Positions 12,488 to 53,949 of a stretch of 64,000 nt of DNA are shown piece after piece (position 1 is the stretch's first letter; each line of letters starts with the position of its first letter). The stretch covers positions 19,028,288-19,092,287 of the forward strand of contig NC_135246.1 in assembly GCF_947623445.1 (NCBI RefSeq). The letters are read 5' to 3'. Position numbers and translations under genes: made by a program. Under the pieces are notes generated by a model. That model was not told the origin of the DNA. It was given only the letters and a program-made list of their open reading frames with translations, and searched no databases. The DNA is from Clavelina lepadiformis (Eukaryota).

Positions 12488-12569
12488 CGTTGTCGGCAGG
12501 ATTCGAACCTACGCGGGCATAGCCTAACAGATTTCAAGTCTGTCGCCTTAACCACTCGGCCACGACAAC
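12488..12569 (-). tRNA. tRNA-Ser(TGA), unit 6
   Basis: Identical copy, offset +11545. Confidence 0.9.
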
Positions 12570-29400: not shown

Positions 29401-29779
29401 AACCATTCTTTTTTCAAAAGGTAACTCAAACGGTTTAACCCATTTTGCCCTGGTTTGGGTCCAATGGACCCAATGGAGCGTGTTTTAAAATTTCATTAGC
29501 TGCTTCATTGATTAGACCTGCAGGTTCTTATTACAAGTTTGTAATGTTAATGTTAGATAAAATTGCAGTAAATTAAATTGCATTGCCTACCATTTCACAA
29601 AGGCAAATAAATAACTTCTCCGTAATCGGGGACGTATTTGATCAACTTTTTGCAGTAATAACAATTACTCATGTAGTTACCTGTTTGTGTTGTCTGCGTC
29701 ATATACTGCAAGTAGGCTAAAGCAAGATCTCAGCAAAAAAAAAATAGGCTAATATAGGTTTCCTAAAATATGCTTTTTC

Positions 29780-31170
29780 GTTTAGTTTGAATTTGAATAC
29801 AACGTTGAACGGTTAAAGTGAACTTTAAATCCCAGCACGTAGTTGCAATTGAAGCAACAACTTCATGCAAAAATTATCTTTATATCCAAGGTACTTTGAC
29901 ACGTTTTGGACACAAATATTACTTGTTTATAGATAACTTAAAGGAGAAATTTAGGAACAAGCCTACTTGGAGGAAAGCAAAAGTAGCAGTCCCAACAAAT
30001 AACGTAAAACCTAAAGCGTTTCATGACCAAGATATGGAAAGTACACCACAAGGATAACATTAGTGATAAATGGTAATAGGAATTGCAAGAAATGAAGCGA
30101 GGTATAACATTGCACCAGAGGCAACGTACTGTGCTATACATTGGAAAAATGAGCATTGATGTTGATAACGAGAATAACACGTTAGGAAAAATGGAAAGTA
30201 ACTGTTAATTTTGGGCGCTAAATTTTGGTGTAGATCTTACAAACTAAAGCTTTTTATTTAAATGGACAAACCTTTTCAAATGCTTATTTGTTGATGACAG
30301 GGTTTAATTGTTTGATCAAAAAGGCCTCATGTACTTTGTTTTCATAACCGGTTTTACATTTAAGGAATATGTTGAAGTTATTCGGTCGTTACGTCACAGC
30401 GTCTGTATTTGATGAAATGGTAATTTTTATGCACCGATCTGACAACATGTGTGTAAAATTATGAAATATTTTTGCATTGCGCCACGAATGGAACGAGCCA
30501 ATTTCGTCCAGCTCTAAACAAAACCATCCGGTCATTTTGTGTTAAGTAAAACCTGTCTGCGATTTAATCTCCATTGAAGTAACGCAACAATTTATGAAAC
30601 GTATTTTCAAAATGAAATGTTATTATTTTGATGTTATCAAAGTTGTTTAACTTGTTCACATTCATAACCCATGATAACAAGCTTTAATTTGAAATAACGA
30701 AAGTGTGACATTAAATAACTGACCTTTGTTGTCCTCGATTAATCTACTTCTTTTTTGAGAATATTTTCGTTGAACTCACCTTAGCAGTCGTCATCATCGA
30801 ACTCTCCTGTTTTGGATGCAGACAAATGCTTGCTACTGTACATAAATCTAATGCTTTGTCAACTTTTCAAACACTATTTAGTGCAATTCGCTTTGCCAAT
30901 TAGGCTAAAATTTTCTATTGAGCATTTGGTTTCAAGGTTACTACATTTTTCTTACATAAAAACGTGCTGATAGAAACGGATGTTTGTACAGTAATATACC
31001 GATATGTATGCTATACCTATCGCAAAAGTTGTTAAAACAACACCAGTTTTTTGTAGAAAAATCAAAATTAGGCTTAACTTAATATGAGTACAGATAATGT
31101 TAACACAATAAAATAGAATACGTGTGAAAAATTCAACAATAAACAACATGCAAAAGCATCCCATCCGTGA
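29780..31170 (-). repeat. Gene-fragment repeat, family A, ~1.4 kb. It is a DCP1-like intron-4 plus terminal-exon plus 3-prime-flank segment, here with the terminal exon degenerated.
   Basis: The reverse complement of 29940-30900 aligns block by block with 41640-42540. Examples are cctattaccatttatcactaatgttatccttgtggtgtactttccatat..., cgctgtgacgtaac[g/g]cccgaataacttcaacat and ccagctctaaacaaaaccatcc[g/a]gtcattttgtgt. The terminal-exon homologue at ~30740-30830 is truncated. Confidence 0.55.
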
Positions 31171-33980
31171 AGGCAGTTGATCCCGGTTTGACGTACTTAG
31201 TTCCCAAACGCTGCTGTCGAGGAGTTAGGAGGAGTTAAATTTAGTTTTATATCTAGGCATACCATATTTTTGTGACTGAAAAGTGGGACGCTTCAGAACA
31301 ACGAACCTTATCAGATAAATGTGGTTCATATTTTACTAGGAGTATGCAACTATTTTGGATTCCTATCGTCAGGGATAACTAAAGTAGTAAGACACCAAGA
31401 AAAACTAAATTAACTCATTTTACTAAGAAACAAAACAATGTTCAAGCATTTGTAAATTTACATAATCGTCCAATCATACTTTTCTGTAGAATATACTTTC
31501 TTCAAGAAGTCTTTATTCGACTTTATTTTCTCATAAAAATCACAGCAGGAAAAGTCAGTGTTAATTTTGCAGGTGGTAAGGGCTTTCACATTCAAATGGT
31601 TTTTGCAGAAGGAAACGCAAACAAGTACCGGAACGAAATAAGTTCTTTCCATAACCTAACTGCAAAAAGTTCACCTCCTCCTTCTAGCCTGCTATTACTG
31701 AACTAGCGAATGCGTTAACATTAAACTCACTACTGGACCAATTACCCGTTAGAATGACGTAACAATTGCTTTCACATTAAACACAACAAAACAAGAACAC
31801 GCATCGAGCATTGCTCTTCAGCAAGTTGGCTAAGCAGACCTATCACAGCATGCTAATACTGGTGTAGTGAAGGGCAATGCTGGTTGACTAAATGCCAAAG
31901 CGGGACTTTGGGTTGACTCAGCGGGACGCCGGGACAAAGCCTTAAAAAGCGGTACTGTCCCGGCTAAAACGGGACGTATGGTAAGCCTATTTATATCCCT
32001 AATTGCCTACCATCTCCATTGCAAGTTCTATTGGTTTTCACAAGTACATTCAAAACGTATATCCTGTTGAGGATAAAAACATTTCGGTTATTGAGAACTA
32101 TAACTGATAAAACACGTACAAAATTTTTTCCAGTTTAAGACAAAACCATCCAATCTAGAATTAATCTTCCTTTAGTTAAATCACATTTAATAAAGCGCTT
32201 TATTTCAAAAACAAAATGTCAGCATTGTGGATTTATTAATGGAATTGTAGTTGCCGTCATATGTTACATCCAGAGACAAAAGTTCGTTGTCAAGCTTAAA
32301 AACGTTAAGTATCTTCCTCATACATGAGATTGTGAAAAGTGTTTTACGTCGTTTTAGTTTATCAGAAAACTTATCTATTCCTTGCAAAACACATGGAAGA
32401 CAGATTATACGGCGTTTCAAAATTATCGCATTCGGAGTTTCAGTGTTGAGGTCCATAAATTGTCAAACTTTGAGTCTGGGTTGTTTGAATAAAGGGGGTG
32501 GAAAGAAGTGTTACGAATTTTACTGTACATTAAAATATGAGAATATATTTCGATTGATTTTGAGCAATTTTGAAAGCAGAAAAGCACAGAATTTGTGGAA
32601 TATCTGCACCCTATTTTGGGCGTTTTCCGTCAGAGCAATCCTAAATACGTCGCTACTATGTACAAGGTAGGCTTGTTGATATTTTAAGAAACTTCTGATT
32701 TTTGAATTTCATCAAAATGCTTAAACTAAGCTTTTTATACTTAAAATCGTAATATTGTCACGTGTCATCTAAAAACATGCTTTATATCTTACTTTATATC
32801 TTTATATAGCTTTAATCTTCTCATTTTTTGTCTTTCTTGTACTTTTCTTCAATTTTTATATCCTACTTCAAACTTTTTTAATAATTTTCATTATTTTGTT
32901 GAAAACAAGTTATTGTTTGCGATTTCTATGATTATGTTTTGATTTCATCAGAACGCCAGAATGACGTTGCTTTTGTTATTAAAACTACAACTACAGTACT
33001 ACTACTGTACTACTTTTGTTATTAAAAGTCTACGTACAAATGTAACAGCGCTGTTAGTTGTTTTGGAGTCTACATAAAAAGTAATATAATTGCAGAATGC
33101 TTTCTTTAAATAATACTGACAGGTTAATTTAGAAAGTAAAAAGAGTAATTGCCTATTATCTTCCTTTTTATTACTCAGAGGTTTTGATGCTGAAAGGAGT
33201 GGAAAATACAAACAAGTTGACAATAAATCAAACTAAGCTAGCGCTGTCTTTTAGGCTTGACTTTTCAGAATAGTAAATATATCAGAGAAAAAACTTTTAA
33301 ATGATGCTGTGCGGTTAAACAAGTAAGCCTGCTGCCGAAAGATTGTCCCAAAAAAGCAGATTTGACGCAAATTTTGACATTTGTGGTACAGTAGTGACGT
33401 CATAATATAAGAGCAATATGTATGAGTAGGCTAGCATGACTCTGGTAAGGTTACGCCATGCAGGGAAACCTCAATTGTCTGTTCATTTATTACAATTGGC
33501 ATTGAAAAATTCTGATTTGCTTTGTTTATTTGCTATAAGTTAGTGTGAAGATGTAAAAGTTTGGCGTGCAAGTTAATGAGATTCATTAACGCAGGGTGCG
33601 GTGGTGTGGTATAATCTTTATCCTTGGACTGAGGAAAGTCTTTGAACGACTTAAACCCGGCGATGATTTCCAATAACTTGAGACCCGGTTACTGAGCTAG
33701 CCTTTGTGCAAGTTTGTAACATGAAAAGGGTCTTTATTAGATCCAGTGTAAACCTACATTAACCTGCAACTGATGTATTTATGCTGGTGAAGATTGATGT
33801 TAAGCTACAGCTCAGTTTTGCCTATGCGTTCAGTTGCTGGATGAAAATATACAACCTGTGTTAAGAAATTTTTCTCGTTTTTCTCAGTAGAAAAACTTCA
33901 AAGCAATCATGTTAGATATGTTTGGTCCTTAAGTTTGTAGGTTGAGCTGTGCAACAAAAATTTCACTAACTTAAAGGAAA

Positions 33981-34520
33981 ATGCTTCGTTGGATATGTCG
34001 AGAAGAGAAGGAAAGAGAGCCAGAGATATTTGAAAACGTGTCGTTGGGTTTAAAGAATCTTTATAAAAGCAGACTTAAACCACTGGAAGAGGCATATAAA
34101 TTCCATAACTTTCATTCACCTGCATTACACAATGCTGACTTTGACTCAAAGCCTATGATTTTACTAATAGGCCAGTACTCAACCGGAAAAACAACGTTCA
34201 TTAGATATTTGTTGGAAAAAGATTTTCCAGGCATGAGAATTGGCCCCGAACCAACAACAGACTGCTTTATTGCTATAATGGCTGGTGCAAAAGACAAAGC
34301 CAGTGGAGTTGTCAATGAAGGGATTGTTCCTGGAAATGCTGCTGTTGTCGATGATACAAAACCTTTTAGGGCCCTTTCCTCATTCGGAAATGCATTTTTA
34401 TCTCGGTTTTTATGTTCTCATATGGAAAATGAAGTTTTAAACAGCATCAGCATCATCGACACTCCTGGTATTTTGTCTGGTGAAAAGCAGAGAGTAAACC
34501 GAGGTTATGATTTTGCAAAG
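33981..34520 (+). CDS. EHD: EHD (EH-domain-containing dynamin-like ATPase) exon 1
   Basis: The translation MLRWICREEKEREPEIFENVSLGLKNLYKSRLKPLEEAYKFHNFHSPALHNADFDSKPMILLIGQYSTGKTTFIRYLLEKDFPGMRIGPEPTTD...SIIDTPGILSGEKQRVNRGYDFAK matches the EHD1-4 N-terminal G-domain, including the P-loop GQYSTGKTTF and DTPG. The donor follows at aag|gtaatt. Confidence 0.85.
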
Positions 34521-34772
34521 GTAATTTTAAAGTGAGGTTTCTCGTCAACATGCATAACCGAGCCATAAATTATCTAAAGTAACACTTGTACATATTATAG
34601 TCCTTTGCAATTAATTTAATCAAATTTACCGATAATTTTTGTTTTGGTTTGCTCGTATTATGTTTTGTTTACCTTTTAAGACAAATAATTACCATGAATA
34701 CAAATAATTACTTAATTACCTTAATGTTTACAGCGAATTTAGAAGTCCTTTTGTTAGCCTCAGTTTTTTCAG

Positions 34773-34979
34773 GTGCTGACCTGGTTAGCAGAGAGAGTTG
34801 ACCGGATCATTCTCTTGTTCGACGCTCACAAGCTTGACATTTCAGATGAGTTCCATGAAGCTCTCGACGCCGTTAAAACCTTTGATTCCAAGATTCGCGT
34901 TGTTCTAAATAAGTCGGACCAAGTCAACACTCAACAACTGATGAGGGTTTATGGAGCTCTTATGTGGTCCCTTGGAAAG
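34773..34979 (+). CDS. EHD: EHD exon 2
   Basis: The acceptor is ttttttcag|gtgctg. It encodes VLTWLAERVDRIILLFDAHKLDISDEFHEALDAVKTFDSKIRVVLNKSDQVNTQQLMRVYGALMWSLGK, the canonical EHD NKAD/NKSD region. Phase is 0. Confidence 0.85.
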
Positions 34980-35306
34980 GTAGGCTAATCTATGCAGGAT
35001 GGGGAAATTATGGAATTTTCTTCCAGTAGGGACCACATGCACAGTATGATTTTAACATCATTATAGTTTTTCTCTTACCAAATTGCACTGAAATGATAAA
35101 GTTGGAGCTGTTTGATATGACATAATCATATGCTTTGCTTGCATTTATAAAGACTAAACATATATCTTATACTGTATGATGTCATGAGTTTGTGCTTAAC
35201 TGGTATTTGTTGGTATCATTTATAAACATATTTAAAGACAGCATAAAGTTGACAGTTTTATGCACCTGACTCCAACAAAGGGTGCAGCTAAAGCTTGTGA
35301 TCTCAG

Positions 35307-35495
35307 GTAATAACCACACCGGAAGTGGTTAGGGTGTATATTGGGTCATTCTGGGACCAACCACTACGCTACGATGAAAACAGGCTCTTGTTTGAAGCTG
35401 AACGCAATGATCTCTTTGATGATATTCAAAGTCTGCCCAGGAATGCTGCTTTAAGAAAACTGAACGATTTAATTAAAAGAGCTAGACTAGCAAAG
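35307..35495 (+). CDS. EHD: EHD exon 3
   Basis: tctcag|gtaataacc encodes VITTPEVVRVYIGSFWDQPLRYDENRLLFEAERNDLFDDIQSLPRNAALRKLNDLIKRARLAK. Compare EHD1 IINTPEVVRVYIGSFW...RARLAK. Confidence 0.85.
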
Positions 35496-35846
35496 GTGAA
35501 CATATTATCAAGTTTCTTCAGACTAATTTACATTCCATTCTCCACATGCGTTCATTTGTAGTTTAGCTACTCGATATTAGTTTCAATATACACATGTTCC
35601 TATTACTTTGTAATACACTTGTTATTATAAGTTTTGCAAATGGCAGCAAGAATGTTATCTGTGTTTATGGTAAGTTGACTTTGCTTCTAGTTAAGGCAGT
35701 ACATTAGGCATCAGTTTAGCGTCACTATTTTCAGGCACCGGCTGAAGTTAGGAAAGAAAACATGCATTTGTGATAGTGCATGTGCATCATCGATCAGACA
35801 TGCAAGTGTGATAGACTTTTAATGTTTTCACTTTTCTTATTTTTAG

Positions 35847-35982
35847 GTCCATGCTTATATCATCAGTCATTTGTATGACAGCATGCCGTCCCTGTTTGGC
35901 AAGACCAAGACCAAGAATAAGCTAATTAATGATCTGGAAAAAATCTTTGTCGAACTGTCTCATAAACACAGCATCTCACTTG
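35847..35982 (+). CDS. EHD: EHD exon 4
   Basis: ttttag|gtccat encodes VHAYIISHLYDSMPSLFGKTKTKNKLINDLEKIFVELSHKHSISL(G). It ends in phase 1 before gtaagc. Confidence 0.8.
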
Positions 35983-36372
35983 GTAAGCTATTGCATTTTT
36001 GGCCTGTGGTTAATTTATGCTGCATAACTATGTCAGTGAAGAAGACCACAGTTACACTTTGTAGTACGGGTGGTTGTGTATAAATGTACGATGGCTTTTG
36101 TTAGGCAACGATTTAAAATAAAATTTTGCTTGATTACACAATGTAACAAAAAAAGAAAATTTTTTTGTTCCCAGGTTCTAATCGATTTTTCCCTATTGCT
36201 TAGGACCAGTAAGTGTTGAAAATCAACTTTATTTCATATAAACTTTGTTTTTGTGGTTTAGAGACTGAAATTCTAAAATCGCAATATTTTTGAGAAAAGA
36301 TATCAAAGATATGGCTAAAGAGCATCCAAGATGGATGTTAATCACTTTTAAATGTTAATATACTCTCATTCA

Positions 36373-37196
36373 GTCCACCTGAAAGAAAACTATGAGACTG
36401 TTAAGACTTTGTTGAATGTTTTAAAGTACGATCAATATAACTGGGAAAAATTGGGGACTTTAAAATGGTAGCGTTTGTAATGGGTATGCAAGGGGGGTTC
36501 ACCAAGTATCCTTGCCACCTTTGCCTTTGGGATAGTAGGGCTACCACAGAACACTACAAAAAGCAAATATGGCCAAAACGAAACGAATTTGTTGTTGGAG
36601 AGAAAAACGTAGGGCAAACTCGGTTGATTAACCCAAACAAAGTGCTTATGCCTCCCCTTCACATAAAACTTGGGCTTATAAAGCAATTTGTGAAAGCATT
36701 GGATAAAGGTGGTGACGCATTCCAGTTTCTGAAAAACTTGTTTCCTGAACTATCAGAAGCTAAAGTAAAAGCTGGTGTATTTATTGGCCCACAAATTAAA
36801 AAGATTCTCAAGTCAAATGATTTTATCCAAATGCTTAATGATGTTGAAAAGAAGGCTTGGGATAGCTTTGCAGATGTGGTGAATGGGTTCTTGGGCAATA
36901 ACAAGGAAGATAACTATGCCGAACTCGTTGCCAATTTGGTAAAGTCGTATGGAAACATGGGGTGCAGAATGTCCATGAAAGTACATATGCTTGATGCTCA
37001 CTTGGACGAGTTTAAAGACAATATGGGAGCTTATTCAGAAGAACAAGGGGAGCGATTCCATCAAGACATAACAGATTTTGAAAGGAGATACCAAGGGCAA
37101 TATAATGAAAGCATGATGGGAGATTATGTCTGGGCCTTGATGCGGGAAAGTGATGTGGAGTACAAAAGAAAATCCCGCAAAACATCCCATTTTTAA
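36373..37196 (+). pseudogene. Transposon-derived ORF remnant inside EHD intron 4. The intact 243-aa ORF is 36465-37196, preceded by a frameshifted continuation.
   Basis: The ORF reads MVAFVMGMQGGFTKYPCHLCLWDSRATTEHYKK...MGCRMSMKVHMLDAHLDEFKDNMGAYSEEQGERFHQDITDFERRYQGQYNESMMGDYVWALMRE. It is single-exon, sits in the sense orientation inside a host intron, and carries a Cys/His motif. The upstream +2 frame reads LKENYETVKTLLNVLKYDQYNWEKLGTLKW*, so it is a fragment of a larger ORF. Its family is unresolved. From memory I associate this motif pattern with transposon-domesticated proteins common in invertebrate genomes, but I cannot place it in a family. Confidence 0.4.
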
Positions 37197-38202
37197 CTGA
37201 TTTTATACTTGAACTGTTTTAGCCTGAAATACTTATTTAGTTTTGCATTTAACATTTAATGATGGTATTGATTCGGATACAGTTGATACATTTATGTGCA
37301 AATTTCCATGTACCAAATGCCTGTGCTTTGTGATTTGATTTTAATAACAAAAATTCTAATTCGTTGCCTGTTACTAGGCAAACTCAGAATTAACCCTTTG
37401 CCAGACAGAAAAATAGCCAAAAGTTGGCTGTAATTTGCTTTGCGAAAAAGCAATCGATAGCCTACGACTAGCGCGTCAGAATATTTAGTAAATACATTGA
37501 TAGAATATAACTTCTTAGTCGATGCCAAGCGATTAAAAATGGACTTACAGCGATCAAAGACAGTTTGGTAAATATCCATTTCCTATAGGGTAAATCAGTA
37601 TAACCATGCACAATATTGCACATACAAGCAAATTCAAAAAATTACTCTCCTAACCACAAAATCAATGTTTGGAATGAACTATATTGATTTTTGGAAGTTT
37701 CTAGGTGAGAGAGATCAGGAAATATCAATTAGAACCCGGGAACAAAAATCGTGTTACACAGTGTTATCTAACTCGATTGAACACATTCATTGTATAAGCC
37801 ACAAACATTGTCTGGTCAGTCATCCAAGGTATTTGTCTTTAAGTAGTTGTTGTTGTTGTGAAATTGTGTTGATACGAAACGAATAGTCGTTTTTAAAACT
37901 AACATTACTTGATAGGGCATTGCAATCAGAACTGCTTTAAAGTGCAAGTGCTAAAACAAGTTTACCTTAATCAAAAATGTGTCGGTTGCTGTAAAATATT
38001 TTTTTCCGGGGCTTTTCCTGGCATCTCTTATTTGGTTTAAGATCGACTTGTTTTAGAACTTGCCCTTCGCTTTATACAAGAATACTTCTAAAAAATAATA
38101 ACAGTTTTTATTTTCCAAATGTTTGGTTTCATTTTGTTCTTTTATAAACTCGCTTGGCTTTGTGTTACTATTAAGATTGCTTTGATAATTTCTGTCTTGC
38201 AG

Positions 38203-38294
38203 GTGATTTCCCAAACGCACAAAAAATGAAAGAAAAACTGAAACTCACAGATTTTGGCAAATTACGAAGCTTGAGTAAGTCCATGGTTAAAAAG
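38203..38294 (+). CDS. EHD: EHD exon 5
   Basis: cttgcag|gtgatttcc gives (G)DFPNAQKMKEKLKLTDFGKLRSLSKSMVKK, then donor aag|gtattg. Compare EHD1 PGDFPSLRKMQELLQTQDFSKFQALKPKLLDT. Confidence 0.75.
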
Positions 38295-38703
38295 GTATTG
38301 GCTTATTTGCTCACTAAAGTCATGTTTGCTGTTATTTATACACGTTTTAGAGTTTTTATTACTAACTTAGCAGAAAAAGTATTTACTAGTGATGGGCCGC
38401 ACGAACCTGAATAATCTTCCTCGCGGCACAGTATTTACTGAAGTAGCCCTTTAATTTTCATTTAGAAATAGTAAATGTTCATGTTGACTGCTCAGAGACA
38501 GTGTTGCTTTCTGTATTAAATTTTATTTCCTTGGAAAGTAGACCTATGTCTTTTCATTTTATGGAATTATATTGAGACAAAGAAGCTGTTGAATCATCGC
38601 AAATTATCACACACATTATGACACAAGCCTTTAAATGCATGGTCATTCTGGAGAACAGTCGTTCCCAGCCTTTTCCAACTTATTATGTATCAGTTCTGTT
38701 TAG

Positions 38704-38809
38704 GTTGACGACATGCTTGCAAAAGACATTGCCGAGTTGATGAAGTTGATTCAGAGAGAGGAAACTAAAGCTGCCGAGAAAATCAAGTCTGAAGGCCCTT
38801 CAGTTAAAG
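38704..38809 (+). CDS. EHD: EHD exon 6
   Basis: ctgtttag|gttgacgac encodes VDDMLAKDIAELMKLIQREETKAAEKIKSEGPSVK(G). It ends in phase 1 before gtatttgc. Confidence 0.8.
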
Positions 38810-38920
38810 GTATTTGCATTTACATTTCTGTACAGCACATGGTGTGTTTTACAAACTATTTGACAAAGATATCACCACTAAAATTCACCTTTAACCTTAG
38901 CACACTGTCTGTTGTTTCAG

Positions 38921-39099
38921 GTGGAGCATTTTTTGCTTCCAAAGATAATCCTTTCAGCAATACATTTGGAGTCGGAGTTAACGCTGGGAGCGATTGTGAT
39001 GGAGAATGGATCGTTTCAGAGAAGAAATCAGCGTATGACGAAGTCTTCATGAAACTGAATCCGGCCGACGGCAAAGTCAAAGGAAGTGAAGCGAAGAAG
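38921..39099 (+). CDS. EHD: EHD exon 7
   Basis: tgtttcag|gtggagc encodes GGAFFASKDNPFSNTFGVGVNAGSDCDGEWIVSEKKSAYDEVFMKLNPADGKVKGSEAKK, then aag|gtggta. Compare EHD1 GGAFDGT...EWVVGKDKPTYDEIFYTLSPVNGKITGANAKK. Confidence 0.8.
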
Positions 39100-39419
39100 G
39101 TGGTACTCTAAATAATAACAGCAACCAGTCCAGCTGGTCACTATGGTGTCATAACTGGTGCAAAATGCACGTAGTTGTATAAAAGTTGTATTATTCCAGT
39201 AAAAATTTACTAAAAACTGCCCATTGTTTTCTCAGCGAATTAAAAACATATGTGTTACTTATTTAATATGCTGCATGTGTATATTAACTTATCGCTTTCC
39301 TTTTACTATTATCGCATAAAATGTGTCCGAACCTATACCTAGAGTAGTTGCTGGCAATAGCTACTATCATACTATCACAAAAGTTTTTGGTTTTTTGCAT
39401 TTTTTTCTCTCGTATGCAG

Positions 39420-39606
39420 GAAATGATCAAATCAAAACTCCCAAACACGGCACTGGCAAAGGTCTGGCGTTTGGCAGATCACGATAAAGATGGTATGCTG
39501 ACCGAGGAAGAGTTTGCACTCGCAATGCATTTGATAAATGTTCGCTTGGAAGGACATGTCTTACCTGACGATCTTCCAAAGCACCTCATCCCACCTTCTC
39601 AAAGAT
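39420..39606 (+). CDS. EHD: EHD exon 8, the EH domain with EF-hand. A good gtaagc donor at 39607 implies a further short terminal exon that I could not locate. Otherwise it reads through to the stop at 39791.
   Basis: gcag|gaaatg encodes EMIKSKLPNTALAKVWRLADHDKDGMLTEEEFALAMHLINVRLEGHVLPDDLPKHLIPPSQR. Compare EHD1 EMVKSKLPNTVLGKIWKLADVDKDGLLDDEEFALANHLIKVKLEGHELPADLPPHLVPPSKRRHE*. Confidence 0.75.
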
Positions 39607-41329
39607 GTAAGCTAATACGATTTAAATTTTGTATCCACAAATCTATTAAGTGTAACTGTTTAAGCAAAAAGTTACAGCATTTGTCTAACCACTTCCTTTA
39701 TCTTTCACGTTTTAATGATGTTTTTCTGTGCATCTGGGTCTGCAGCTTAGCTTCTTTGTTTTTCAAAACCAAGCCTGTTCGGGGATTGTGAAGCACTCGA
39801 TATGAATGTAGTTAACATCATCAAAGCTAATTATATGACTGAATTGAAACACTCATAGCATTGTAGACCCAATTAATTATAATAGATAATTATAATAATA
39901 AACAATAAACATTATATATATTTAGAGGTTTATGTTATTGGACAAGATTTGGGAATCAATAACGTAATGGTGTCACAATTGCCATTCTTTGATGTACCGT
40001 TGAAACTAGTCGTATAGCTCCTCTTAGCGCATTTTAACTAAAGCTATCTTTTAGCTGATGAGCCTGACTTAGAAGAAGAATCAGATTAACTAACCTTAAA
40101 ACACAACACAAAGGTTAGTTATTCTGTACGAGTTGCAACATTTGCTTTTTCTCTGGCATTATTAAGTCGTTACAACGACAAATAAATTTTTCATCCATTG
40201 TATAATCATGTGATGCGACTGGGATGATTGACAGTTGTTGTTTTCTTTTAGTTTTGGAGGCATGATGGCTTATTTCAAGTTGTTCACTTCAAAAAGAAAA
40301 AATCTAGTGTAGCAATAGGCAGATCTTTTTTCTGTTTGGTAAAAATATACCTTTCCCAATATTGCAAGAAATGTTTTGAAATGCGCACAAATTTTCACGC
40401 AGCACTGTGTTGTTTTGTACTATGTTATTTATTTTTTTAAATTATAATAATTTATAATATTTTTTATAATATACTTTCTGTAATTGTTCATTCTTACAGT
40501 TTTCAAGTTTCCTATGAACAAATGTGATTAGTAGCATAGCAGTATGTTTGCATTGCATTTGTACCTGAATGAGTACATTCTTACGCATGCGTGCATACTA
40601 CATTTTATTACATTTTATATTACACAATATAATTGAAACATTTTGCTATTTGGTAGCCTAGATTTCAGCATAGATAGGCAGGTACTCTGGTACTGATAGA
40701 AGGCGAGTTGAATGGTAGAAAAGAAATCCTTGGACAGATGACTCAGTTTGGACTTTGGATGCAAGAAAAAATTTTCTAAAAATTGATAAACAGCATTTCA
40801 AGTCTTTCAAAAACTATCAGTAGCCTACTGGAAATTAGCACTCCAGTACGTTGTAAAGGGATGTCAAGTCCAGTACTGTACTCTACAAAAACAGCTCTGG
40901 ATGCTAGATTGACTATTTTTATTGTATAAATGAAGACAACATGCGCCGATGAAATAGGCTAGCACATTTTGAAAAACGTCTTATAGAGCAGACGGCTTTC
41001 ACGCACAAAGATAAAATAATTTAATGGATGAATGAACTTAGTGCTCTACCGCCAACTGGCGGTCGTTATGACAAATCTACCATCACATAAGCTTGAAGTA
41101 TTGATGTCAAAACTCACTACACGAGAGCCAGATCCGTTTAATTAATCTCCGGAGTTGTTAAGACTAAATACACCGACGTCAATCTGGTTATAGGTTCCCT
41201 GGTTTAAGTGATAACCATTTAATTATTCAGTTCCAGCCTACCTGCCTAAAACGTGTTGGGTAAACAACTGGTGTGGTTTGAAATTAGCTACAACTTAAAA
41301 GTAACTTAGTCCTTCCATATATACACTAA

Positions 41330-42750
41330 AGCTTACACACCATATTTTCAATGCCCTTTTCTTAACATGAAAATAATGGTTTTTGAAAATCAATGCACTT
41401 TTACATTCACTACGTTAACAAACACGCATTTAAACAAAACAAACACAATTTTAAAGTAAACATTTGTCTTAAGTTTAAGCAATGAAGTTATTAAAATTGA
41501 AGTCTAGTCCCGTAGTTCTTTAAACTCTGTCAACTTTATCCGTGAGTCTAACAATAGTAAAATAACTAATATTCAAAATTTGCAAATTTTATTTTCAATG
41601 ATAAATTATCTTGCAAGTGTTGTACTTTTACACTCTGCCGTTAAACGACACAATAACTAAACCAATTTTTATTCAACATGTAGCATGGTTCTGTCGAACT
41701 TATATTTCAAAAATGGATTGGTAGTGGCAAAAAACGACAAATTTGTCATTGAAATTAAACTTTGGTATATTTATGCAGTCTAATAGAAGAGGAAAAAAAC
41801 GATGAATATGAAAAACGAGATTTAGCATATCGAACGCAAATTTTTTGGATATATGAAGAACTGCATGACGACGATAGCGATGGAAAACTCGATGACGACG
41901 ATAGCGATGATGAGGTCAACGAAAACATTCTGGAGGAAAAAGTGGTTCAATCGAGGACAACAAAGATCAGTTAGTCAATGTCACAGTTTTGTTATTTCAA
42001 ATTAAAGATTGCTACCAAGAATTGTGAATGTGAGCAGGCAAAATAACGTTAATAACATCACAACATAACCATTTCATCATATACAATTGTTGTGACGTAA
42101 CGCCCGAATAACTTCAACATTTTCCTTAAATGTAAAACTAGCAATGAAAGCAAAGATGATGACGCCTTTTTGATAAAACAATTAAACCCTATCATCAACA
42201 AATAAGCATTTGAAAACGTTTAATCATTTTCAATGCAAAGATTTAGTCCATAAGACCTATTTCAATATCCAGCGCCAAACCTTACCTGTTATTTTCCATT
42301 CTTCTCACCGTGTCGTTCTCGTTATCCAACATTGTCAACATTGCCACTGTTCATTTTCTCATAGCACAGTACGTTGCCTCTGGTGCAATTTCATACCCCG
42401 TTTCATTTTTTTCGAAGTTTTTTAATACCAATTATCACTAATGTTATCCTTGTGGTGTACTTTCCATATGTTGCTCATGTAACGCTTTAGGTTTTGCACT
42501 ATTTTTTGGGACAGCTAATTTTACTTTCCTCTACGACTCTACGTAGTTATTATTATTCCATTATGTTATCTACAAAAAAAGAAATGTTTATGTCCAAAAC
42601 GTGTCAAACTAACTTGAAAATAAACATCATTCTTGCATGAAGTTGTCGCTTCAATTGCAACTACGTGCAGGGATTTAAGGTCGATTTTAACCGTTCAACA
42701 TTGTATTCAAAGTCAAACTAAACAAAAAAGCATATTTAAGCAAGCTTATA
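41330..42750 (+). repeat. Family-A gene-fragment repeat. It lies inside tandem-duplication copy 1 and carries an orphan DCP1-like terminal-exon homologue.
   Basis: See 29780-31170. It contains the exon-like block 41779-41974. Confidence 0.55.
41779..41974 (+). pseudogene. Orphan DCP1-like terminal-exon homologue. The expected stop is mutated to CAA.
   Basis: atgcag|tctaatagaagag... encodes LIEEEKNDEYEKRDLAYRTQIFWIYEELHDDDSDGKLDDDDSDDEVNENILEEKVVQ.... This is homologous to the P4 terminal exon DLMQDEEQDVYEKQDLAYRTRNFRIYEVHSDDEFEYELLQQVD*. No exons 1-4 are recognisable upstream. Confidence 0.4.
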
Positions 42751-42767
42751 GGAAGAGTTGAGTTGCA

Positions 42768-42868
42768 GGAAGAGTTTGCACTCGCAATGCATTTGATAAA
42801 TGTTCGCTTGGAAGGACATGTCTTACCTGACGATCTTCCAAAGCACCTCATCCCACCTTCTCAAAGAT
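42768..42868 (+). pseudogene. Duplicated 3-prime fragment of EHD exon 8. It is a pseudo-exon with no upstream exons.
   Basis: It encodes (E)EFALAMHLINVRLEGHVLPDDLPKHLIPPSQR followed by gtaagc. It is identical to 39506-39606. Confidence 0.6.
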
Positions 42869-44560
42869 GTAAGCTAATACGATTTAAATTTTGTATCCAC
42901 AAATCTATTAAGTGTAACTGTTTAAGCAAAAAGTTACAGCATTTGTCTAACCACTTCCTTTATCTTTCACGTTTTAATGATGTTTTTCTGTGCATCTGGG
43001 TCTGCAGCTTAGCTTCTTTGTTTTTCAAAACCAAGCCTGTTCGGGGATTGTGAAGCACTCGATATGAATGTAGTTAACATCATCAAAGCTAATTATATGA
43101 CTGAATTGAAACACTCATAGCATTGTAGACCCAATTAATTATAATAGATAATTATAATAATAAACAATAAACATTATATATATTTAGAGGTTTATGTTAT
43201 TGGACAAGATTTGGGAATCAATAACGTAATGGTGTCACAATTGCCATTCTTTGATGTACCATTGAAACTAGTCGTATAGCTCCTCTTAGCGCATTTTAAC
43301 TAAAGCTATCTTTTAGCTGATGAGCCTGACTTAGAAGAAGAATCAGATTAACTAACCTTAAGACACAACACAGAGGTTAGTTATTCTGTACGAGTTGAAA
43401 CATTTGCTTTTTCTCTGGCATTATTAAGTCGTTACAACGACAAATAAATTTTTCATCCATTATATAATCATGTGATGCGACTGGGATGATTGACAATTGT
43501 TGTTTTCTTTTAGTTTTGGAGACATGATGGCTTATTTCAAGTTGTTCACTTCAAAAAGAAAAAATCAAGTGTAGCAATAGGCAGATCTTTTTTCTGTTTG
43601 GTAAAAATATACCTTTCCCAATATTGCAAGAAATGTTTTGAAATGCGCACAAATTTTCACGCAGCACTGTGTTGTTTTGTACTATGTTATTTATTTTTTT
43701 AAATTATAATAATTTATAATATTTTTTATAATATACTTTCTGTAATTGTTCATTTTTACAATTTTCAAGTTTCCTATTAACAAATGTGATTAGTAGCATA
43801 GCAGTATGTTTCCATTGCATTTGTACCTGAATGAGTGCATACTACATTTTATTACATTTTATATTACACAATATAGTTGAAACATTTTGCTATTTGGTAG
43901 CCTAGATTTCAGCATAGATAGGCAGGTACTCTAGTACTGATAGAAGGCGAGTAGAATGGTAGAAAAGAAATCCTTGGACAGATGACTCAGTTTGGATGAA
44001 AGAAAAAATTTTCTAAAAATTGATAAACAGCATTTCAAGTCTTTCAAAAACTATCAGTAGCCTACTGAAAATTAGCACTCCAGTACATTGTAAAGGGTTG
44101 TCAAGTCCAGTACTGTACTCTACAAAAACAGCTCTGGATGCTGGATTGACTATTTTTGTTGTATAAATGAAGACAACATGCGCCGATGAAATAGGCTAGC
44201 ACATTTTGAAAAACGTCTTATAGAGCAGACGGCTTTTACGCACAATGATAAAATAATTTAATGGATGAATGAACTTAGTGCTCTACCGCCAACTGGCGGT
44301 CGTTATGACAAATCTACCATCACATAAGCTTGAAGTATTGATGTCAAAACTCACTACACGAGAGCCAGATCCGTTTAATTAATCTCCGGAGTTGTTAAGA
44401 CTAAATACACCGACGTCAATCTGGTTATAGTTTCCCTAGTTTATATCATAACGATTCAGTTATTCAGATCCTGCCTACCTGCCTAAAACGTGTTGGGTAA
44501 ACAACTGGTGTGGTTTGAAATTAGCTACAACGTAAAAGTAACTTAGTCCTTCCATATATA

Positions 44561-45199
44561 TGTGGCGGTCGTGATAACAAACAATAATAAGTTATGTAAT
44601 TAGCATTTTAAAAAGCGGATTGTGTGTTTCTCCAGTTAGAGGCAATTCAATATTTAAACAGATGTATTATTCGTGGTTAAGCAGTTATTCAAACAAAGGA
44701 GTTTGAAGTGTTTCAAGTACCATATTGTATTTTTACCGTGTAACGTTTTGATGGTACTTTGGTCAAGAGCTTCGGTGACAATAGAATAATGTTAGATGTG
44801 ACATAGCTTGTACGTAAGAATGCAAAAATAACATATGGCACGCGCCCATTGGTCAAAATACGGGAGTATAAAAGCTAAGGTTTGGTCTAAATTGGGATCT
44901 TCTCTCTTCGTGCTTTTCGGATTATTCGGTTTACTGAATTATTCGGAATTGGAATCATTACTGAATTCGAGTTATAGCTTGTTTAAATGTGAAAATATGG
45001 TGTAAATGTTTCTAATTTGATACAACCTATTCGGACAATATAACAATTAGACTTTATGAAGTTGGTGTTGATTTGAAAAAACATTATAGAGACAGCAAAC
45101 ACAACGAAGTCAAAGACAATTGTCTATAGGAGTCTAACAGTAAGACTAATAGTCTTGGCTTAGGCCAACCTAAAAGCAAAGCCACACCGCCATCCCCAC
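44561..45199. mobile_element. Transposon-like insertion of 639 bp, specific to duplication copy 2. It is internally related to the MULE-like element at 14562.
   Basis: Copy 1 has the uninterrupted site tccatatatacactaaagc. Copy 2 reads tccatatata[TGTGGCGGTCG...CCGCCATCCCCAC]atatacactaaagc, with a TA-rich 4-5-bp target duplication. Insert blocks 44700-44800 and 44990-45195 match the reverse complement of 14760-14980, for example caacacca[g/a]cttcataaagtctaattgtta[c/t]attgtccgaa and ttgtcaccgaagctcttgaccaaagtaccatcaaaacgttacac. Confidence 0.5.
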
Positions 45200-45204
45200 A
45201 TATA

Positions 45205-46628
45205 CACTAAAGCTTACACACCATATTTTCAATGCCCTTTTCTTAACATGAAAATAATGGTTTTTGAAAATCAATGCACTTTTAAATTCACTACGTTAAC
45301 AAGAACGCATTTAAACAAAACAAACACAATTTTATAGTAAACATTTGTCTTAAGTTTAAGCAATGAAGTTATTAAAATTGAAGTCTAGTCCCGTAGTTCT
45401 TTAAATTCGGTTAACTTTATCCGTGAATCTAACAATAGTAAAATAACTAATATTCAAAATTTGCAAATTTTATTTTCAATGATAAATTAACCTGCAAGTG
45501 TTGTACTTTTACACTCTGCCGTTAAACGACACAATAACTAAACCAATTTTTATTCAACGTGTAGCATGGTTCTGTCGAACTTATATTTCAAAAACGGAAT
45601 GGTAGTGGTAAAAAACGACAAAGTTTTCATTGAAATTAAACTTTGGTATATTTTTGCAGTCTAATAGAAGAGGAAGAAAACGATGAATATGAAAAACGAG
45701 ATTTAGCATATCGAACGCAAATTTTTTGGATATATGAAGAACTGCATGACGACGATAGCGATGGAAAACTCGACGATGACGATAGCGATGATGAGTTCAA
45801 CGAAAACACTCTGGAGGAAAAAGTGGTTTAATCGAGGACAACAAAGATCAGTTAGTCAATGTCACAGTTTTGTTATTTTCAGTTAAAGATTGTTACCAAG
45901 AATTGTGAATGTGAACAGGTAAAATAACGTTAATAACATCACAATATGACCATTTCATCATATACAATTGTTGTGACGTAACGCCCGAATAACTTCAACA
46001 TTTTCCTTAAATGTAAAACTGGCAATGAAAGCAAAGATGATGACGCCTTTTTGATAAAACAATTAAACCCTATCATCAACAAATAAGCATTTGAAAACGT
46101 TTAATCATTTTCAATGCAAAGATTTAGTCCATAAGACCTATTTCAATATCCAGCGCCAAACCTTACCTGTTATTTTCCATTCTTCTCACCGTGTCGTTCT
46201 CGTTATCCAACATTGTCAACGCCACTGTTCATTTTATCATAGCACAGTACGTTGCCTCTGGTGCAATTTCATACCCCGTTTCATTTTTTTCGAAGTTTTT
46301 TAATACCAATTATCACTAATGTTATCCTTGTGGTGTACTTTCCATATCTTGCTCATGTAACGCTTTAGGTTTTGCACTATTTTTTGGGACAGCTAATTTT
46401 ACTTTCCTCTACGACTCTACGTAGTAATTATTATTCCATTATGTTATCTACAAAAAAAGAAATGTTTATGTCCAAAACGTGTCAAACTAATTTGAAAATA
46501 AACATCATTCTTGCATGAAGTTGTCGCTTCAATTGCAACTACGTGCAGGGATTTAAGGTCGATTTTAACCGCTCAACATTGTATTCAAATTCAAACTAAA
46601 CGAAAAAGCATATTTAAGCAAGCTTATA
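45205..46628 (+). repeat. Family-A gene-fragment repeat. It lies inside tandem-duplication copy 2.
   Basis: It is a tandem duplicate of 41330-42750. ORF 45643-45831 is near-identical to ORF 41762-41974. Confidence 0.55.
45660..45831 (+). pseudogene. Orphan DCP1-like terminal-exon homologue, the duplicate of 41779-41974. Its stop codon is retained.
   Basis: It encodes ...DLAYRTQIFWIYEELHDDDSDGKLDDDDSDDEFNENTLEEKVV* and ends at TAA 45829-45831. Confidence 0.4.
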
Positions 46629-46899
46629 TTAGTCTACTTTTTTTGCTGAGATCTTGCATTAGCCTACTTACAGTATATGACGCAGAAAACACAAGCAGGA
46701 AGCTACATGAGTAATTGTTACTAACCTAAAAATTGATAATTTTACGCTTACGCTTTCCAGTATCTGCAAAGACAGGATACATATCATAAAATCCGTCTCT
46801 ATGAACGACTATACGTCCTGTGACATAATTCTGTGACATATTTCCTCTCATTAACTATCTTGTAAAGCACCTATAACCTAAATTTGCTTTTTGAATGTC

Positions 46900-47110
46900 T
46901 ATCGTATATTTAAGTTTCACATACGAACAAGTTATATTGCTCAGACTAGTTATTTTCCTCACATTGTTTCGCCGCCGGTTGTGTAAGAACCAAACACTTC
47001 ATGTTCATCTTATCCAATTCGCACTTATGTTTAGTGACTTATCTGTTGATGCCAATCGTCGCATGTTGTGATCGCACTCGCACCTAATTTCCTCCTGATA
47101 TCAATCTAAA
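46900..47110 (+). repeat. Family-2 repeat copy. This is the right-arm partner of 29168-29400.
   Basis: The nucleotide match cgaacaagttatattgctcagactagttattttcctcacattgtttcgccgccggttgtgtaagaaccaaacacttcat... was read directly. Confidence 0.5.
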
Positions 47111-47635
47111 ACGCTGCTGGATTTCTAAATGTTCTTATTTTATGTTGCAAATCTCGCGAGTCTGTAGGCAAAGACAGCTCATTGTCTCAGAACAACAGGT
47201 GCACAGGTGCTAACCATGATTGTGCAATATTTACCAATTCACAACTTTGAACCTGCGTTGATTTCGTCGTTGATTACTTTTTGAGCCATGGTTTCAAAAT
47301 CTGTTTTTGCTTGAAATTTTTTCTAGTAAACAATCCCTTTGTTTTAATAAGAAGACTGCCTTATAAAAGCAGTTGTCTTGTAGAGTGACTGCAGTTGAAA
47401 AGTAAGTCTGTCTAAGCCCTAAGGAATGTGTTATACTTTAACAGATTTCAGTTTTGCAATGTATATGTACTCGACGTAAATTCAGCAGTTTGCTTCTGTG
47501 TAAAGTTACATTGCTTGATGCAATGCGTGGTAAATAAAGTAAACTTGAGGCAATGTTAAGCAAAATATTTTAATCAGGCTTTGGTGCTAGTTGACGTTAT
47601 AGTGTCAAGAAACGAAATGACATCATAGTCTAGTC

Positions 47636-47934
47636 CAGGGGCGGGCAACTTTTTCGGTCGGCGGGCCTGATATGAGAAAATAAAGTACTTGGCGGGCCGG
47701 ATTCCTGAATCGATACATTAATCGTGGATTTATCCACCTATGCAAGCAATAAATCGTATTTAATGTAAACTTTAAGTTTTAAGCATAGAGACCAAAAACA
47801 GTATTTAATGAATTTATTAACGATTAATGTACTTCAATAGCTGCTGAAGTCAAAACTGAACTGCTAAACTGAACTGCTGAACTGTCTGCGGGCCGCTCAA
47901 AATCCCGTCGCGGGCCGTATATTGCCCACCCCTG
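47636..47934. mobile_element. hAT-type MITE, 299 bp
   Basis: The TIRs are CAGGGGCGGGCAAC... and ...TTGCCCACCCCTG. It is flanked by a perfect 8-bp TSD GTCTAGTC at 47628-47635 and 47935-47942. The homologous position in the left arm (~28660) is an empty site with a single gtctagtc. Confidence 0.7.
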
Positions 47935-48061
47935 GTCTAGTCTATATTCTATCTATTACCTTTCAATTCGTTTTTGTCAGGGTTTATAGTAAGTTGCAAC
48001 TTTGCATTATCTTTCGCGATTAAATTTTTTTGTTTATCAGAGTAATTATCAACTTGCTAAA

Positions 48062-49333
48062 ATGGAGTCGAACATTGAAATGATAATCAATTTGAACTCA
48101 CTTCTTGCTGACATCCCACACATTTCAAATATTTTGGGTTATGCTAATCAAGTGGCGGTTTATCGTTTTGATGAGGAAAGTGAAGAATGGGTAAGTCGTT
48201 TGCAACGTTTGGAAATCTTGAGAAAATTGCACCAATGTTATAACTTATTGGAATTACAACTATACGTTTTTTTTTTTGAATGTCCAACTGTGACTTTTCC
48301 TGCAAATAACTGTTATTGATTTTACAGTTTTTTACGTAACTAATTTTACAAAAATTACATCAATTATTATTATTAAAGATAAATTTCTATTTTTAAGGAA
48401 TACCTTGAAATGAAAGGAACATTATTTGTTTATTCACGGTAAGTCAAATCATTTTCTTTCTTTGTACATTTACTTAACCTTGTTCTGCTTGTTTAAAAAT
48501 TTGCATTGTATTTGTTATCAAGGTTTTGACGTGTACGTTTTTATGTTTTAACAGTTCTTATCCTTTGAAACCTGGTTTTGTAATCATCAACAAACTTTCT
48601 CCTAAAGACTTGACGGAACCCAACACGCCTAGTGCCGAGATGATCGCCGAACACTGTTTTTTAATTTGCAAATACTATGGATGTTAGTGCCCTTGTTATA
48701 GTTGCTTTTGTAGTAACCTGTGATATATTTTAATTTAATTTTAATTGATTATTTGCAGCAACTTACGGATTCATGTTCCAGGACTACTTCGACTGCATAA
48801 GCATTGGATATCTGTTGAAGGAGTAAGCTACAGTTTCTTAACATTTAAAGGCTACTGTAAATATATTTGTAAACATATAACAGAAAGTACACTCTAAATT
48901 TATGAAAGCTGAATCATATGAGCCCAGTATATAACCAGAATACAGTGAAGTAAAATGCAACATTCTGGATAGCATTATGCATCTTAACAGTTATTTCTAT
49001 TGTTTTTAGCAAAACTTGTGAGGAGAATTTTAAAATAAGCGGTAATTACAAAGTGCTATCTAATAATTAATTAACTAATATCTAATAATAATCTAACATT
49101 TCTATATATACTGATAATTCAATATATACATAACATATGCAGTAAGCAACAAGTATACAATATTATTCTTGAATTATAACTTACTGCACGTCATTATGCA
49201 ATAAATTCACTTTTTTCACAGCCTTTGGAAAGAGTTTGAGAATTCTCCGGACTATCCCAGTAGCAATTATTCATCATCGGAAAGCAGTGATGAAGAGGAG
49301 TTAAGCGATGTTGCTTCGGAGGAAAATATATAG
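48062..49333 (+). CDS. DCP1-like EVH1-domain protein paralogue P2, 5 exons, 157 aa. It mirrors P1.
   Basis: The exons are 48062-48190 (MESNIEMIINLNSLLADIPHISNILGYANQVAVYRFDEESEEW|gtaagt), 48398-48438 (EYLEMKGTLFVYS), 48555-48682, 48759-48822 (TYGFMFQDYFDCISIGYLLKE) and 49222-49333 (DLWKEFENSPDYPSSNYSSSESSDEEELSDVASEENI*). All introns are GT-AG, and the phases are conserved with P3 and P4. Confidence 0.75.
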
Positions 49334-50381
49334 CCTATTATAAGATAGCTGTGATCATTTATTTTTTTAATAAAATATTTTTATCAACATACAGGTTCTA
49401 TCAGGTCGATAATAGTCGAAACAAAGTTTAACTTATATTTTCTTAACTTTCCTGGATTATTGTACTTTATTTATCAGGCGTGCGTGTTTATAAGTGCGTT
49501 TATAATTGCGTTATTATAAGTGACGTATTTTATGTTGATATAAATTTTAGTTGTTTATCGCTATTGAAATTTAATTAAAATCTTCATTTTTCATTCATTG
49601 AGATGTCTATCTATATTTGCTGCACATCTGTGAAGTTTGTCTTGAACGCGTTTTAGCGGCAAATACAAATATAATTCAATCGTGTTTGGTTTCTTGTGTA
49701 CGACGTATACGCGCTCAAAACGATATCGCAGACTGCATACATCATATTTTATATTCGCTTGTTATTTTAGAACTATTTCTCATTAACTGGATTCGCAAAT
49801 CGTCATCACTGGCTAAATGCAGTATGTAAATCATTAACTTCTGAAGCAATATGCCGGTACTCGTCTCCAGATCACAATTTGCAGATCGTAAAGAAATAGA
49901 AGACAACTTGCAAAGTCTATCAGTGATATCGGCTTTAAATTCTGATAAACTTGTGAATTTTCTTTCAAAGTTTTCGTAAGCAGGGAGTCTGTAAATGAGG
50001 AATATTTACAACATCACACCTCACCAGCAGCTTGCTTCGCAGAAATACAATTTATCTCACTTGTTTTGTTGACATTGTCTCATCAGTTTTTGAAAACGAT
50101 CTCGTTTGCTACCTTTCAATGGCGTTATAATAAAGAGGGTATAAGCTTATAATTTCTTGAACACAGCAAACTTTAAAGCTGCAGATATTATTGCACATAA
50201 ACGAGTCTGTAAAAAGACACAAAATAAGTTAAGTTTGTTGAAGTAACTTCCTTAAATGTCTGAGGATCCCAACGACAGTGGACCCGTATTCCCTTTTTCG
50301 ACCAACTGTGCCAGGACGACGCGCCCTGAATAAAAGAGCTTTGAATTGCAGAGGTATGTCTTGATCAAAGCTGAGATTTTA

Positions 50382-52707: not shown

Positions 52708-53949
52708 ATGGCGTTCGAAGGTGAAGTAGAAGTTAATTTGAAAGCACTTCTTCGCGAAGATCAAAGCGTTTCGGACATCCTTGATTCTGCAAATCCAGTT
52801 GCAGTTTATATTTTCAATGATGAAAGCAAAGAATGGGTATGTTGTTGGTATAAACTTAAGTAATCATTTCTAACTATGGTTTTAACTTAATCACTTATTT
52901 TAACTTTTCCGAGACTGCTAAATTATGCTGCAATTTTGTTCGATTCGTTTTGGTAGCTTGGATGATTGAGATTACAAAGTTACAACTTTTTAATAAGTTT
53001 TATGCCCTCCTTTGCTTCCGAGCACAAAAGATTCCCAATAAGATGTATTATTTAGTTCTACTACAATGGAATCTTATATTAAAATAAACTTTTTGTATTT
53101 TTAAGGAGAACATTGAAATGGAGGGAACGATATTCGTTCATAAACGGTAAGCCAAACTTATTAACTTACCTTATTGCTTAGTGTTCTTTAAATCTTGTTC
53201 CGTTTAATCAATATTTCGCATTATGCAGTAGTATATCCCGAGTACTTTAAGGATGTAGGGCACATAATTTTGCAATTTCTAATTTGACTTTTCAGTTGTG
53301 TGTTGCTGTAGGTTGTGAAATATTAAAAGTGTTTTTTGTCTGTTCTTTAATCTTGTTCTGTTTGTTCAGCATTCTACATAATACAGATAATTTTACCACA
53401 ATTTATGACATAAATTCTTTCAAGTTTTGACATTATGCATCGCCCTACATTTGGCTTCACCATCATGAACCAAGAGAGTTTGGATAATTGGAGCCAAACT
53501 CTCTATCCTGGTTTGGAGTTTCTTGAATACTCACCGTTCCTGGTGACCAGAAATACTAAATGTAAGTGCATTCAATGTGATCGATTATACCGTAGTAGTA
53601 GCCTAAGTTGAGAATGCATTGGACAATAGGATTTTATGTTTTATATGTTTCAGCAATGGGCTTCGGCTTGAAATTTGAAAACATGGTCGATTGCAGACGC
53701 ATGGGATATCTTCTAAACGAGTAAGTATTAGCTTCATTATAAAGATGCACATAAACTTATACATATTACTATGAAACACCAAGTGGTAACATTATGAACA
53801 AACGCTGATTTAATGATAAAAAAAATCAAAGCAAATATTACTGGGCAATATTTTTGCGATTTTTTTTACAGTCTTTGCAAATAGATAGAATGGACCATGA
53901 AGGCTCTCCCATTGAAGGACTAAATGAAATTGTTAAACTAAAGGATTAA
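52708..53949 (+). CDS. DCP1-like EVH1-domain protein paralogue P3, 5 exons. The terminal exon is ambiguous.
   Basis: The exons are 52708-52836 (MAFEGEVEVNLKALLREDQSVSDILDSANPVAVYIFNDESKEW|gtatgt), 53106-53146 (ENIEMEGTIFVHK), 53425-53561 (R FDIMHRPTFGFTIMNQESLDNWSQTLYPGLEFLEYSPFLVTRNTK) and 53654-53720 (SMGFGLKFENMVDCRRMGYLLN). The last exon is either 53872-53884 (DLCK*, stronger acceptor ttttttttacag) or 53889-53949 (EMDHEGSPIEGLNEIVKLKD*, acidic tail like other paralogues). P3 is the closest to the DCP1 consensus, with HGFTIVNRL matched by FGFTIMNQE. Confidence 0.65.

Follow-up and report, generated by a model that had tools for sequence, protein, structure and literature searches.

The question raised by this locus is where an EHD gene of the tunicate Clavelina lepadiformis ends, and whether a tandem duplication that begins inside one of its exons changes what the gene encodes. 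The DNA analyzed, hereafter the window, is a stretch of 64,000 nt from contig NC_135246.1 of assembly GCF_947623445.1 (positions 19,028,288–19,092,287, forward strand); the coordinates below are those of the window. An earlier note, made from the sequence alone, took exon 8 to be the last recognizable EHD exon and left the 3' end of the gene unsettled. Neither statement holds: a ninth exon follows, behind an intron whose position and phase are conserved in a paralogue and in Ciona, and this terminal exon is already present in two public protein models. The reading favored here is that the gene ends with exon 9 and is intact, and that the duplication is a structural polymorphism; its probability is put at roughly 88%.

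Identity and exon structure of the EHD gene

A protein search with a nine-part model of the EHD protein gives as best match a Clavelina lepadiformis protein of 99% identity, followed by a paralogue at 87% identity and a Ciona EHD3 at 79%. Two proteins make up the 90%-identity cluster to which the best match belongs. One is CAK8671212.1 from Cvlepa_BANY2021, which is 99% identical to the window protein and has the same tail. The other is the RefSeq entry XP_076820523.1 (annotated as EH domain-containing protein 3-like), which shares the window's own variants, Cys6 and the Ala at FFASKD. A search for GT/AG boundaries near the tblastn matches has exactly one solution, whose translation is identical to XP_076820523.1 residue for residue. 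The complete coding region is on the plus strand at 33981–40089 and has nine exons (33981–34520, 34773–34979, 35307–35495, 35847–35982, 38203–38294, 38704–38809, 38921–39099, 39420–39606 and 40055–40089).

Pfam analysis of the 556-residue protein shows four domains, all above the curated cut-offs: EHD_N (23–55), Dynamin_N (60–227), DUF5600 (295–401) and EH (458–546). This is the architecture of the EHD / RME-1 family, i.e., EHD_N, a dynamin-type G domain, a helical domain (DUF5600) and a C-terminal EH domain, in that order. The identity to Ciona EHD and to vertebrate EHD1 and EHD3 is 63–79% with 100% of the query covered, which likewise places the protein in this family. The product of the nine coding exons is thus a dynamin-like ATPase whose EH domain is at the C-terminus. 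Rfam at gathering thresholds gives no matches in positions 33000–49000.

The 3' end of the gene

Exon 8 (39420–39606) encodes residues 484–545, in the C-terminal portion of the EH domain, and contributes the first base of codon 546. It ends with CCT TCT CAA AGA T, i.e., ...PPSQR|T, and is followed directly by a GTAAGC donor at 39607–39612 (GT at 39607–8), as the earlier note had observed. That exon 8 really ends at this donor is borne out by the unique GT-AG model, which equals XP_076820523.1, and by the position and phase shared with the paralogue and Ciona. Intron 8 (39607–40054) is 448 nt, is in phase 1 and has the form GTAAGC...TTTTAG; the acceptor of exon 9 reads ...CTATCTTTTAG.

The coding part of exon 9 is a terminal micro-exon of 35 nt and 11 codons on the plus strand (40055–40089). 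It reads (T)CT GAT GAG CCT GAC TTA GAA GAA GAA TCA GAT TAA, with the stop at 40087–40089. The Ser at the seam is formed by the T from exon 8 and the CT from exon 9. Removal of the phase 1 intron, one base after the PPSQR codons, would let the micro-exon supply SDEPDLEEESD and the stop codon. A missing terminal exon of 2–5 codons had been proposed from the sequence; a short exon does exist, but it is longer than was expected. An AATAAA at 40181–40186, 92 nt past the stop, is the likely poly(A) signal, judged from its sequence and position.

The C-termini of XP_076820523.1 and CAK8671212.1 both read ...PPSQRSDEPDLEEESD. The two annotations are independent. XP_076820523.1 is NCBI's own model (Gnomon) and CAK8671212.1 stems from the funannotate annotation of the assembly of a second individual (Cvlepa_BANY2021, from Banyuls), a pipeline that drew on RNA-seq (PMC10950049). 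The 3' end of the EHD gene is therefore already known from public annotation, and the public models are correct.

A search 3' of the donor for an AG-preceded micro-exon, which the earlier note had suggested, does not by itself identify exon 9. A strict acceptor scan (pyrimidine fraction ≥ 0.74) missed the real exon, whose acceptor scores only 0.59, and a relaxed scan produced 24 equally plausible micro-exons with no discrimination between them. Because the scans could not discriminate, homology and annotation settled the terminal exon. The value of the result is mainly one of quality control, in that an apparently missing gene end is a conserved tunicate micro-exon that cannot be found by reading the sequence alone.

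Conservation of the split terminal exon

The loci compared with the window are the Banyuls EHD locus (L001, GCA_961645235.1), the Clavelina paralogue (L002), the Ciona intestinalis gene (L003) and a teleost EHD3 (L005). A comparison of orthologue C-termini, also suggested earlier, shows a terminal micro-exon after PPSQR in both the paralogue and Ciona. In the paralogue (XP_076815594/5/7.1; 87% protein identity) exon 8 ends ...CAA AGA C|GTAAGT, at the same codon position and in the same phase 1 as in the window. This gene is on another chromosome and has two annotated alternative terminal exons. The first encodes HKHDFNEESY* (17381–17412 of L002, behind ...AACAG|ATAAGCAT) and the second RMAEVN* (17571–17590, behind ...TGCAG|GCATGGCT). 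Exon 9 of the window aligns with the first of these, with PDLEEES in place of HDFNEES. The Ciona intestinalis EHD3 gene (79% protein identity) has ...CAG AGA C|GTAAGT with the intron in the same phase, then ...TTCAG|AGCAAAAT, giving QQNDFNDAAY*, where NDFNDAA is the counterpart of the window's PDLEEES; the acceptor in detail is ...TTTTTCAG|AG CAA AAT... One C. savignyi model terminates exactly at PPSQR. The protein search returned one Ciona intestinalis EHD cluster together with C. savignyi entries of near-identical sequence.

Vertebrate EHD1–4 have the same domains, about 63–64% identity to the window protein and a short tail after PPS(K/Q)R (human EHD1 ...PPSKRRHE*, teleost EHD3 ...PPSKRKIPE*). 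In vertebrates the EH domain and the tail are in one exon, and in the teleost EHD3 locus they form one uninterrupted stretch without an intron, whereas the tunicate tail is longer and acidic. Among the loci compared, the intron after PPSQR is confined to tunicates. A terminal exon of 6–11 codons, set off by a phase 1 intron one base after PPSQR, appears to be the normal architecture of tunicate EHD genes.

The second terminal exon of the paralogue has a degenerate homologue in the window at 40260–40312 (plus strand). Its acceptor is GAG and not CAG, and a 13-nt deletion removes the stop; if spliced in, it would read CMMAYFKLFTSKRKNLV*. Both changes are found in the two copies of the duplication and in the other allele. 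Similarity between the window and the paralogue at the nucleotide level reaches several introns, including intron 8, and the 3' untranslated region (UTR). Unusual conservation of intron 8 between the paralogues was considered and rejected, as several other introns are similar too. The paralogous gene is found in GCA_961645235.1 on CAUIVY010000063.1 (10001–17590), with a TADA2-like gene on one side and a class-V aminotransferase gene on the other. The comparisons suggest that the Clavelina EHD pair is a lineage-specific duplication.

The tandem duplication

Comparison of the region with the window by blastn shows that positions 39505–41323 correspond to 42767–44560 (96.8% identity) and 41315–42750 to 45196–46628 (97.0% identity), with E = 0. 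The 3.25-kb tandem duplication described in the earlier note is thus probably real. Two adjacent copies on the plus strand are arranged head to tail with one novel junction and no assembly gap, as in a genuine tandem segmental duplication. Copy 1 (39505–42750) is the 3246-bp unit and copy 2 (42767–46628) is 3862 bp, being lengthened by a 635-bp insert. The unit comprises the 3'-terminal 102 nt of exon 8, then intron 8 and exon 9, the poly(A) signal and a further 2.6 kb of intergenic sequence; its right end is 2.66 kb past the stop codon. About 1 kb of the intergenic part of copy 1 belongs to a repeat module that precedes DCP1-like genes. On the right, the breakpoint at 46628 (equivalent to 42750) is in the proximal part of an inverted module of about 4.5 kb.

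On the left, the breakpoint falls on the second base of a Glu codon (GAG, residue 512), in the EF-hand of the EH domain; it had been placed at this codon before, one base away (39506). Within the window, the final 33 codons of exon 8 are found at exactly two places. A second copy of the exon 8 end was not found at the paralogue locus or at the Ciona locus, which has one PPSQR-coding site. Copy 2 begins with pseudo-exon 8' (42767–42868), which corresponds to EH residues ~512–545 and has a junction-created AG at 42767–8 and its own donor GT at 42869–70. A pseudo-exon of this kind had been reported at 42768–42868, which differs by one base. Exon 9 is within the duplicated unit and is therefore present twice, the second time as exon 9' (43317–43351, plus strand). 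This copy of the terminal coding exon is identical, has an identical acceptor and is followed by a second AATAAA at 43443. The exon 9 sequence is the same in both copies and in the Banyuls allele.

The 635-bp insert (44561–45195) is present in copy 2 only and is flanked by a 9-bp direct repeat, CCATATATA / CCACATATA, as read by eye. It is probably a non-autonomous transposon; an inverted-repeat search of the insert showed no convincing terminal inverted repeats. The single copy in the Banyuls assembly carries the same insert, there 513 bp longer (L001 ~16607–17757), and copy 1 represents the empty site. The two copies differ in the presence of the insert and therefore carry different allelic states of it. 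Fragments related to the insert are found at window positions 14825–14985.

Junction and origin of the duplication

The two copies are separated by 16 nt of filler at 42751–42766, and the junction reads ...AAGCTTATA (ggaagagttgagttgc) AGGAAGAGTTTGC... After a single copy, ...AAGCTTATA would be joined directly to TTAGTCTAC. The filler is templated and stuttered. Its first 9 nt are the same as 42768–42776, i.e., the sequence that starts one base into copy 2, and the remaining 7 nt repeat GAGTT(T)GC, matching GAGTTTGC minus one T. At a fixed adjacent position, 9 nt would match by chance with a probability of ~4e-6. The junction 28-mer (42745–42772) occurs once in the window and is absent from the Banyuls locus.

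Stuttered filler templated from the vicinity is the recognized scar left by replicative template switching or by end joining mediated by polymerase theta, and the filler here matches its immediate vicinity (9 of the 16 nt exactly, the other 7 but for one T), as such junctions have it. Because these 16 nt are copied from adjacent sequence, the junction was made by non-homologous repair. Likely routes would be polymerase-theta-type end joining or replicative template switching. Templated insertions have been described as a hallmark of polymerase theta, which is required for tandem duplications on the kb scale in C. elegans (PMC7368036). Tandem duplications of this size with templated junctions, attributed to polymerase theta or to fork stalling and template switching/microhomology-mediated break-induced replication (FoSTeS/MMBIR), are likewise head to tail, have no long homology at the breakpoints and contain filler copied from the flanks. 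Unlike in those systems, the pathway here is not assignable from one natural junction, and the copies have since diverged by about 3%.

The Banyuls locus is collinear with the window across the region and both breakpoints, and it has one unit, one exon 8 end and one exon 9; no tandem repeat was found when this locus was compared with itself. Because it is absent from the Banyuls assembly, the duplication is a polymorphism or else is private to the Plymouth individual that was sequenced. It is probably an ordinary, neutral structural variant. It is a small, well-resolved variant with a templated scar in a highly polymorphic chordate; unsurprising taken alone, it could contribute one data point to a survey of the origins of duplications in tunicate genomes.

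The two alleles also differ within the EHD gene. Intron 4 of the window has a 1.6-kb segment (36136–37764) with a 243-aa open reading frame (ORF; 36465–37196) that is absent in the Banyuls locus, and intron 5 of the Banyuls locus has an 858-bp segment (L001 12877–13735) that is absent in the window.

Alternative explanations

Several observations weigh against the favored reading. The divergence between the two copies, about 3%, equals that of either copy from the Banyuls allele, and the informative sites of the three-way comparison number 33, 38 and 28. The copies also differ in the presence or absence of the putative transposon, a pattern that a mis-assembled pair of haplotypes would show as well. 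The repair pathway proposed for the duplication is drawn from a single junction. Usage of exon 9 is a prediction from two annotation pipelines and from homology. Finally, because two AATAAA motifs are present within intron 8 (39897 and 39904), there may be a minor isoform that retains the intron or is polyadenylated in it.

The main rival for the duplication is an assembly artefact, the end-to-end joining of two haplotypes of a single locus; we consider this unlikely. It would account for the similarity of copy divergence to allelic divergence, for the star-like three-way pattern, for the insert of copy 2 being shared with the single copy of the other individual and for the absence of the duplication from the second assembly. 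Nine haplotypic duplications were in fact removed by curators from the assembly to which the window belongs (PMC10884593). Against this, the window has no N and no gaps, and the junction lies in an exon with a 16-nt stuttered filler, a scar of repair where an assembly join would show an overlap. Both assemblies were made from PacBio HiFi reads. For the window's assembly (kaClaLepa1) the DNA was sheared to 12–20 kb and sequenced to 117x, such that single reads would span the whole 7.1-kb structure. The three-way pattern fits an old duplication with exchange to single-copy alleles, a duplication between homologues, or two haplotypes placed in tandem.

If the duplication is taken as genuine, its effect on the transcript can be considered. 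In copy 1, exon 8 is still contiguous with intron 8, exon 9 and the poly(A) signal, and the mRNA and protein would be unchanged, as far as the sequence can tell. No protein effect is expected because all of copy 2 is downstream of the intact gene end; its partial exon 8 and spare exon 9 would be inert fragments. Viewed as proteins, both Clavelina EHD annotations are silent on these fragments.

It is very improbable that the duplication is functional, either by offering an additional terminal exon with its own poly(A) unit, and hence an alternative 3' UTR, or through a PPSQR* isoform made with the junction-created acceptor, or through an EH-truncated isoform made by joining exon 7 to exon 8'. 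Formally each product can be drawn. Exon 9' matches exon 9 exactly, acceptor included, and a splice from exon 8 to exon 9' would give the same protein. A splice from exon 8 to exon 8' would create T|GA, an immediate stop (...PPSQR*), and a splice from exon 7 to exon 8' would be in frame with a loss of 29 EH-domain residues. The paralogue, moreover, has alternative terminal exons of its own. However, all of copy 2 is beyond the first AATAAA, the pyrimidine fraction of the junction-created acceptor is 0.29 compared to 0.53–0.88 for the real acceptors of the gene, RefSeq has a single protein without an isoform label for this gene, and the duplication is absent in the other individual. The alternative 3' ends that had been expected from the duplication are thus a formal possibility only, with a poor acceptor and an immediate TGA if it were used. 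Equally slim is the chance that the duplication is a segregating variant that alters EHD output, whereby transcripts that bypass the first poly(A) site would have an exon 9' 3' UTR or, by way of the junction-created acceptor, would yield a tail-less PPSQR* protein or a target of nonsense-mediated decay. Were this so, it would be a natural allele that changes the acidic C-terminal tail of an endocytic-recycling ATPase.

It is likewise very improbable that the EHD mRNA normally reads through the donor to a stop at 39789–91. The frame is indeed open and would add 61 residues (CKLIRFKF...; about 60 unconserved residues had been predicted), with AATAAA motifs 106–113 nt past the stop. Against this, the paralogue and Ciona share the position and phase of the GTAAGC donor. 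In the paralogue the frame stops after 18 codons, and the intron there carries numerous non-triplet indels and has lost most of the AATAAA region. This end is used in neither annotation, and the cysteine-rich, hydrophobic tail is unlike all 16 tunicate EHD C-termini listed.

Neighboring features

Flanking the EHD gene are the ~4.5-kb arms of an inverted segmental duplication, at 26293–30800 (minus strand) and 45589–50090 (plus strand), with 79–90% identity. Each arm has a short DCP1-like gene (PF06058), with first coding exons at 28423–28551 (minus) and 48062–48190 (plus). A third, more divergent DCP1-like exon is at 52723–52836 (plus), and further fragments of the module are found at ~20–22 kb, 55–57.7 kb and 60.9–61.2 kb.

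An acidic, exon-like ORF (LIEEEKNDEYEKRDLAYRTQIFWIYEEL...DSDDE..ILEE) recurs at 41779–41974, 45660–45831 and 60980–61129 (plus) and at 20149–20226 and 30718–30855 (minus). Where mapped (28.4 kb and 48.1 kb), it is about 2.2 kb upstream of the DCP1-like first exon. In the Banyuls annotation it is a 66-aa gene, whose first coding exon has only 5 nt by our reconstruction. The idea that it is a constrained gene was rejected: among its copies aa identity is 44–65% compared to ~79–84% nucleotide identity, and two have stops, which fits neutral decay. The ORF in copy 1 is without the usual stop. Pfam gives no matches for the acidic ORF (41762–41974), its relative at 20098–20262, an ORF of the insert (44835–45005), an ORF at 42210–42425 or the 243-aa ORF in intron 4.

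The left part of the window has 24 tRNA-Ser genes on the minus strand (465–12569), in a tandem array of ~5.8 copies of a 2309-bp unit. Every unit has four genes (anticodons AGA, CGA, CGA and TGA) that are ~159 bp apart. The units are 100% identical from position 1 to ~13400, and the array continues off the left edge of the window. This perfect identity suggests a very recent amplification, concerted evolution or an effect of assembly.

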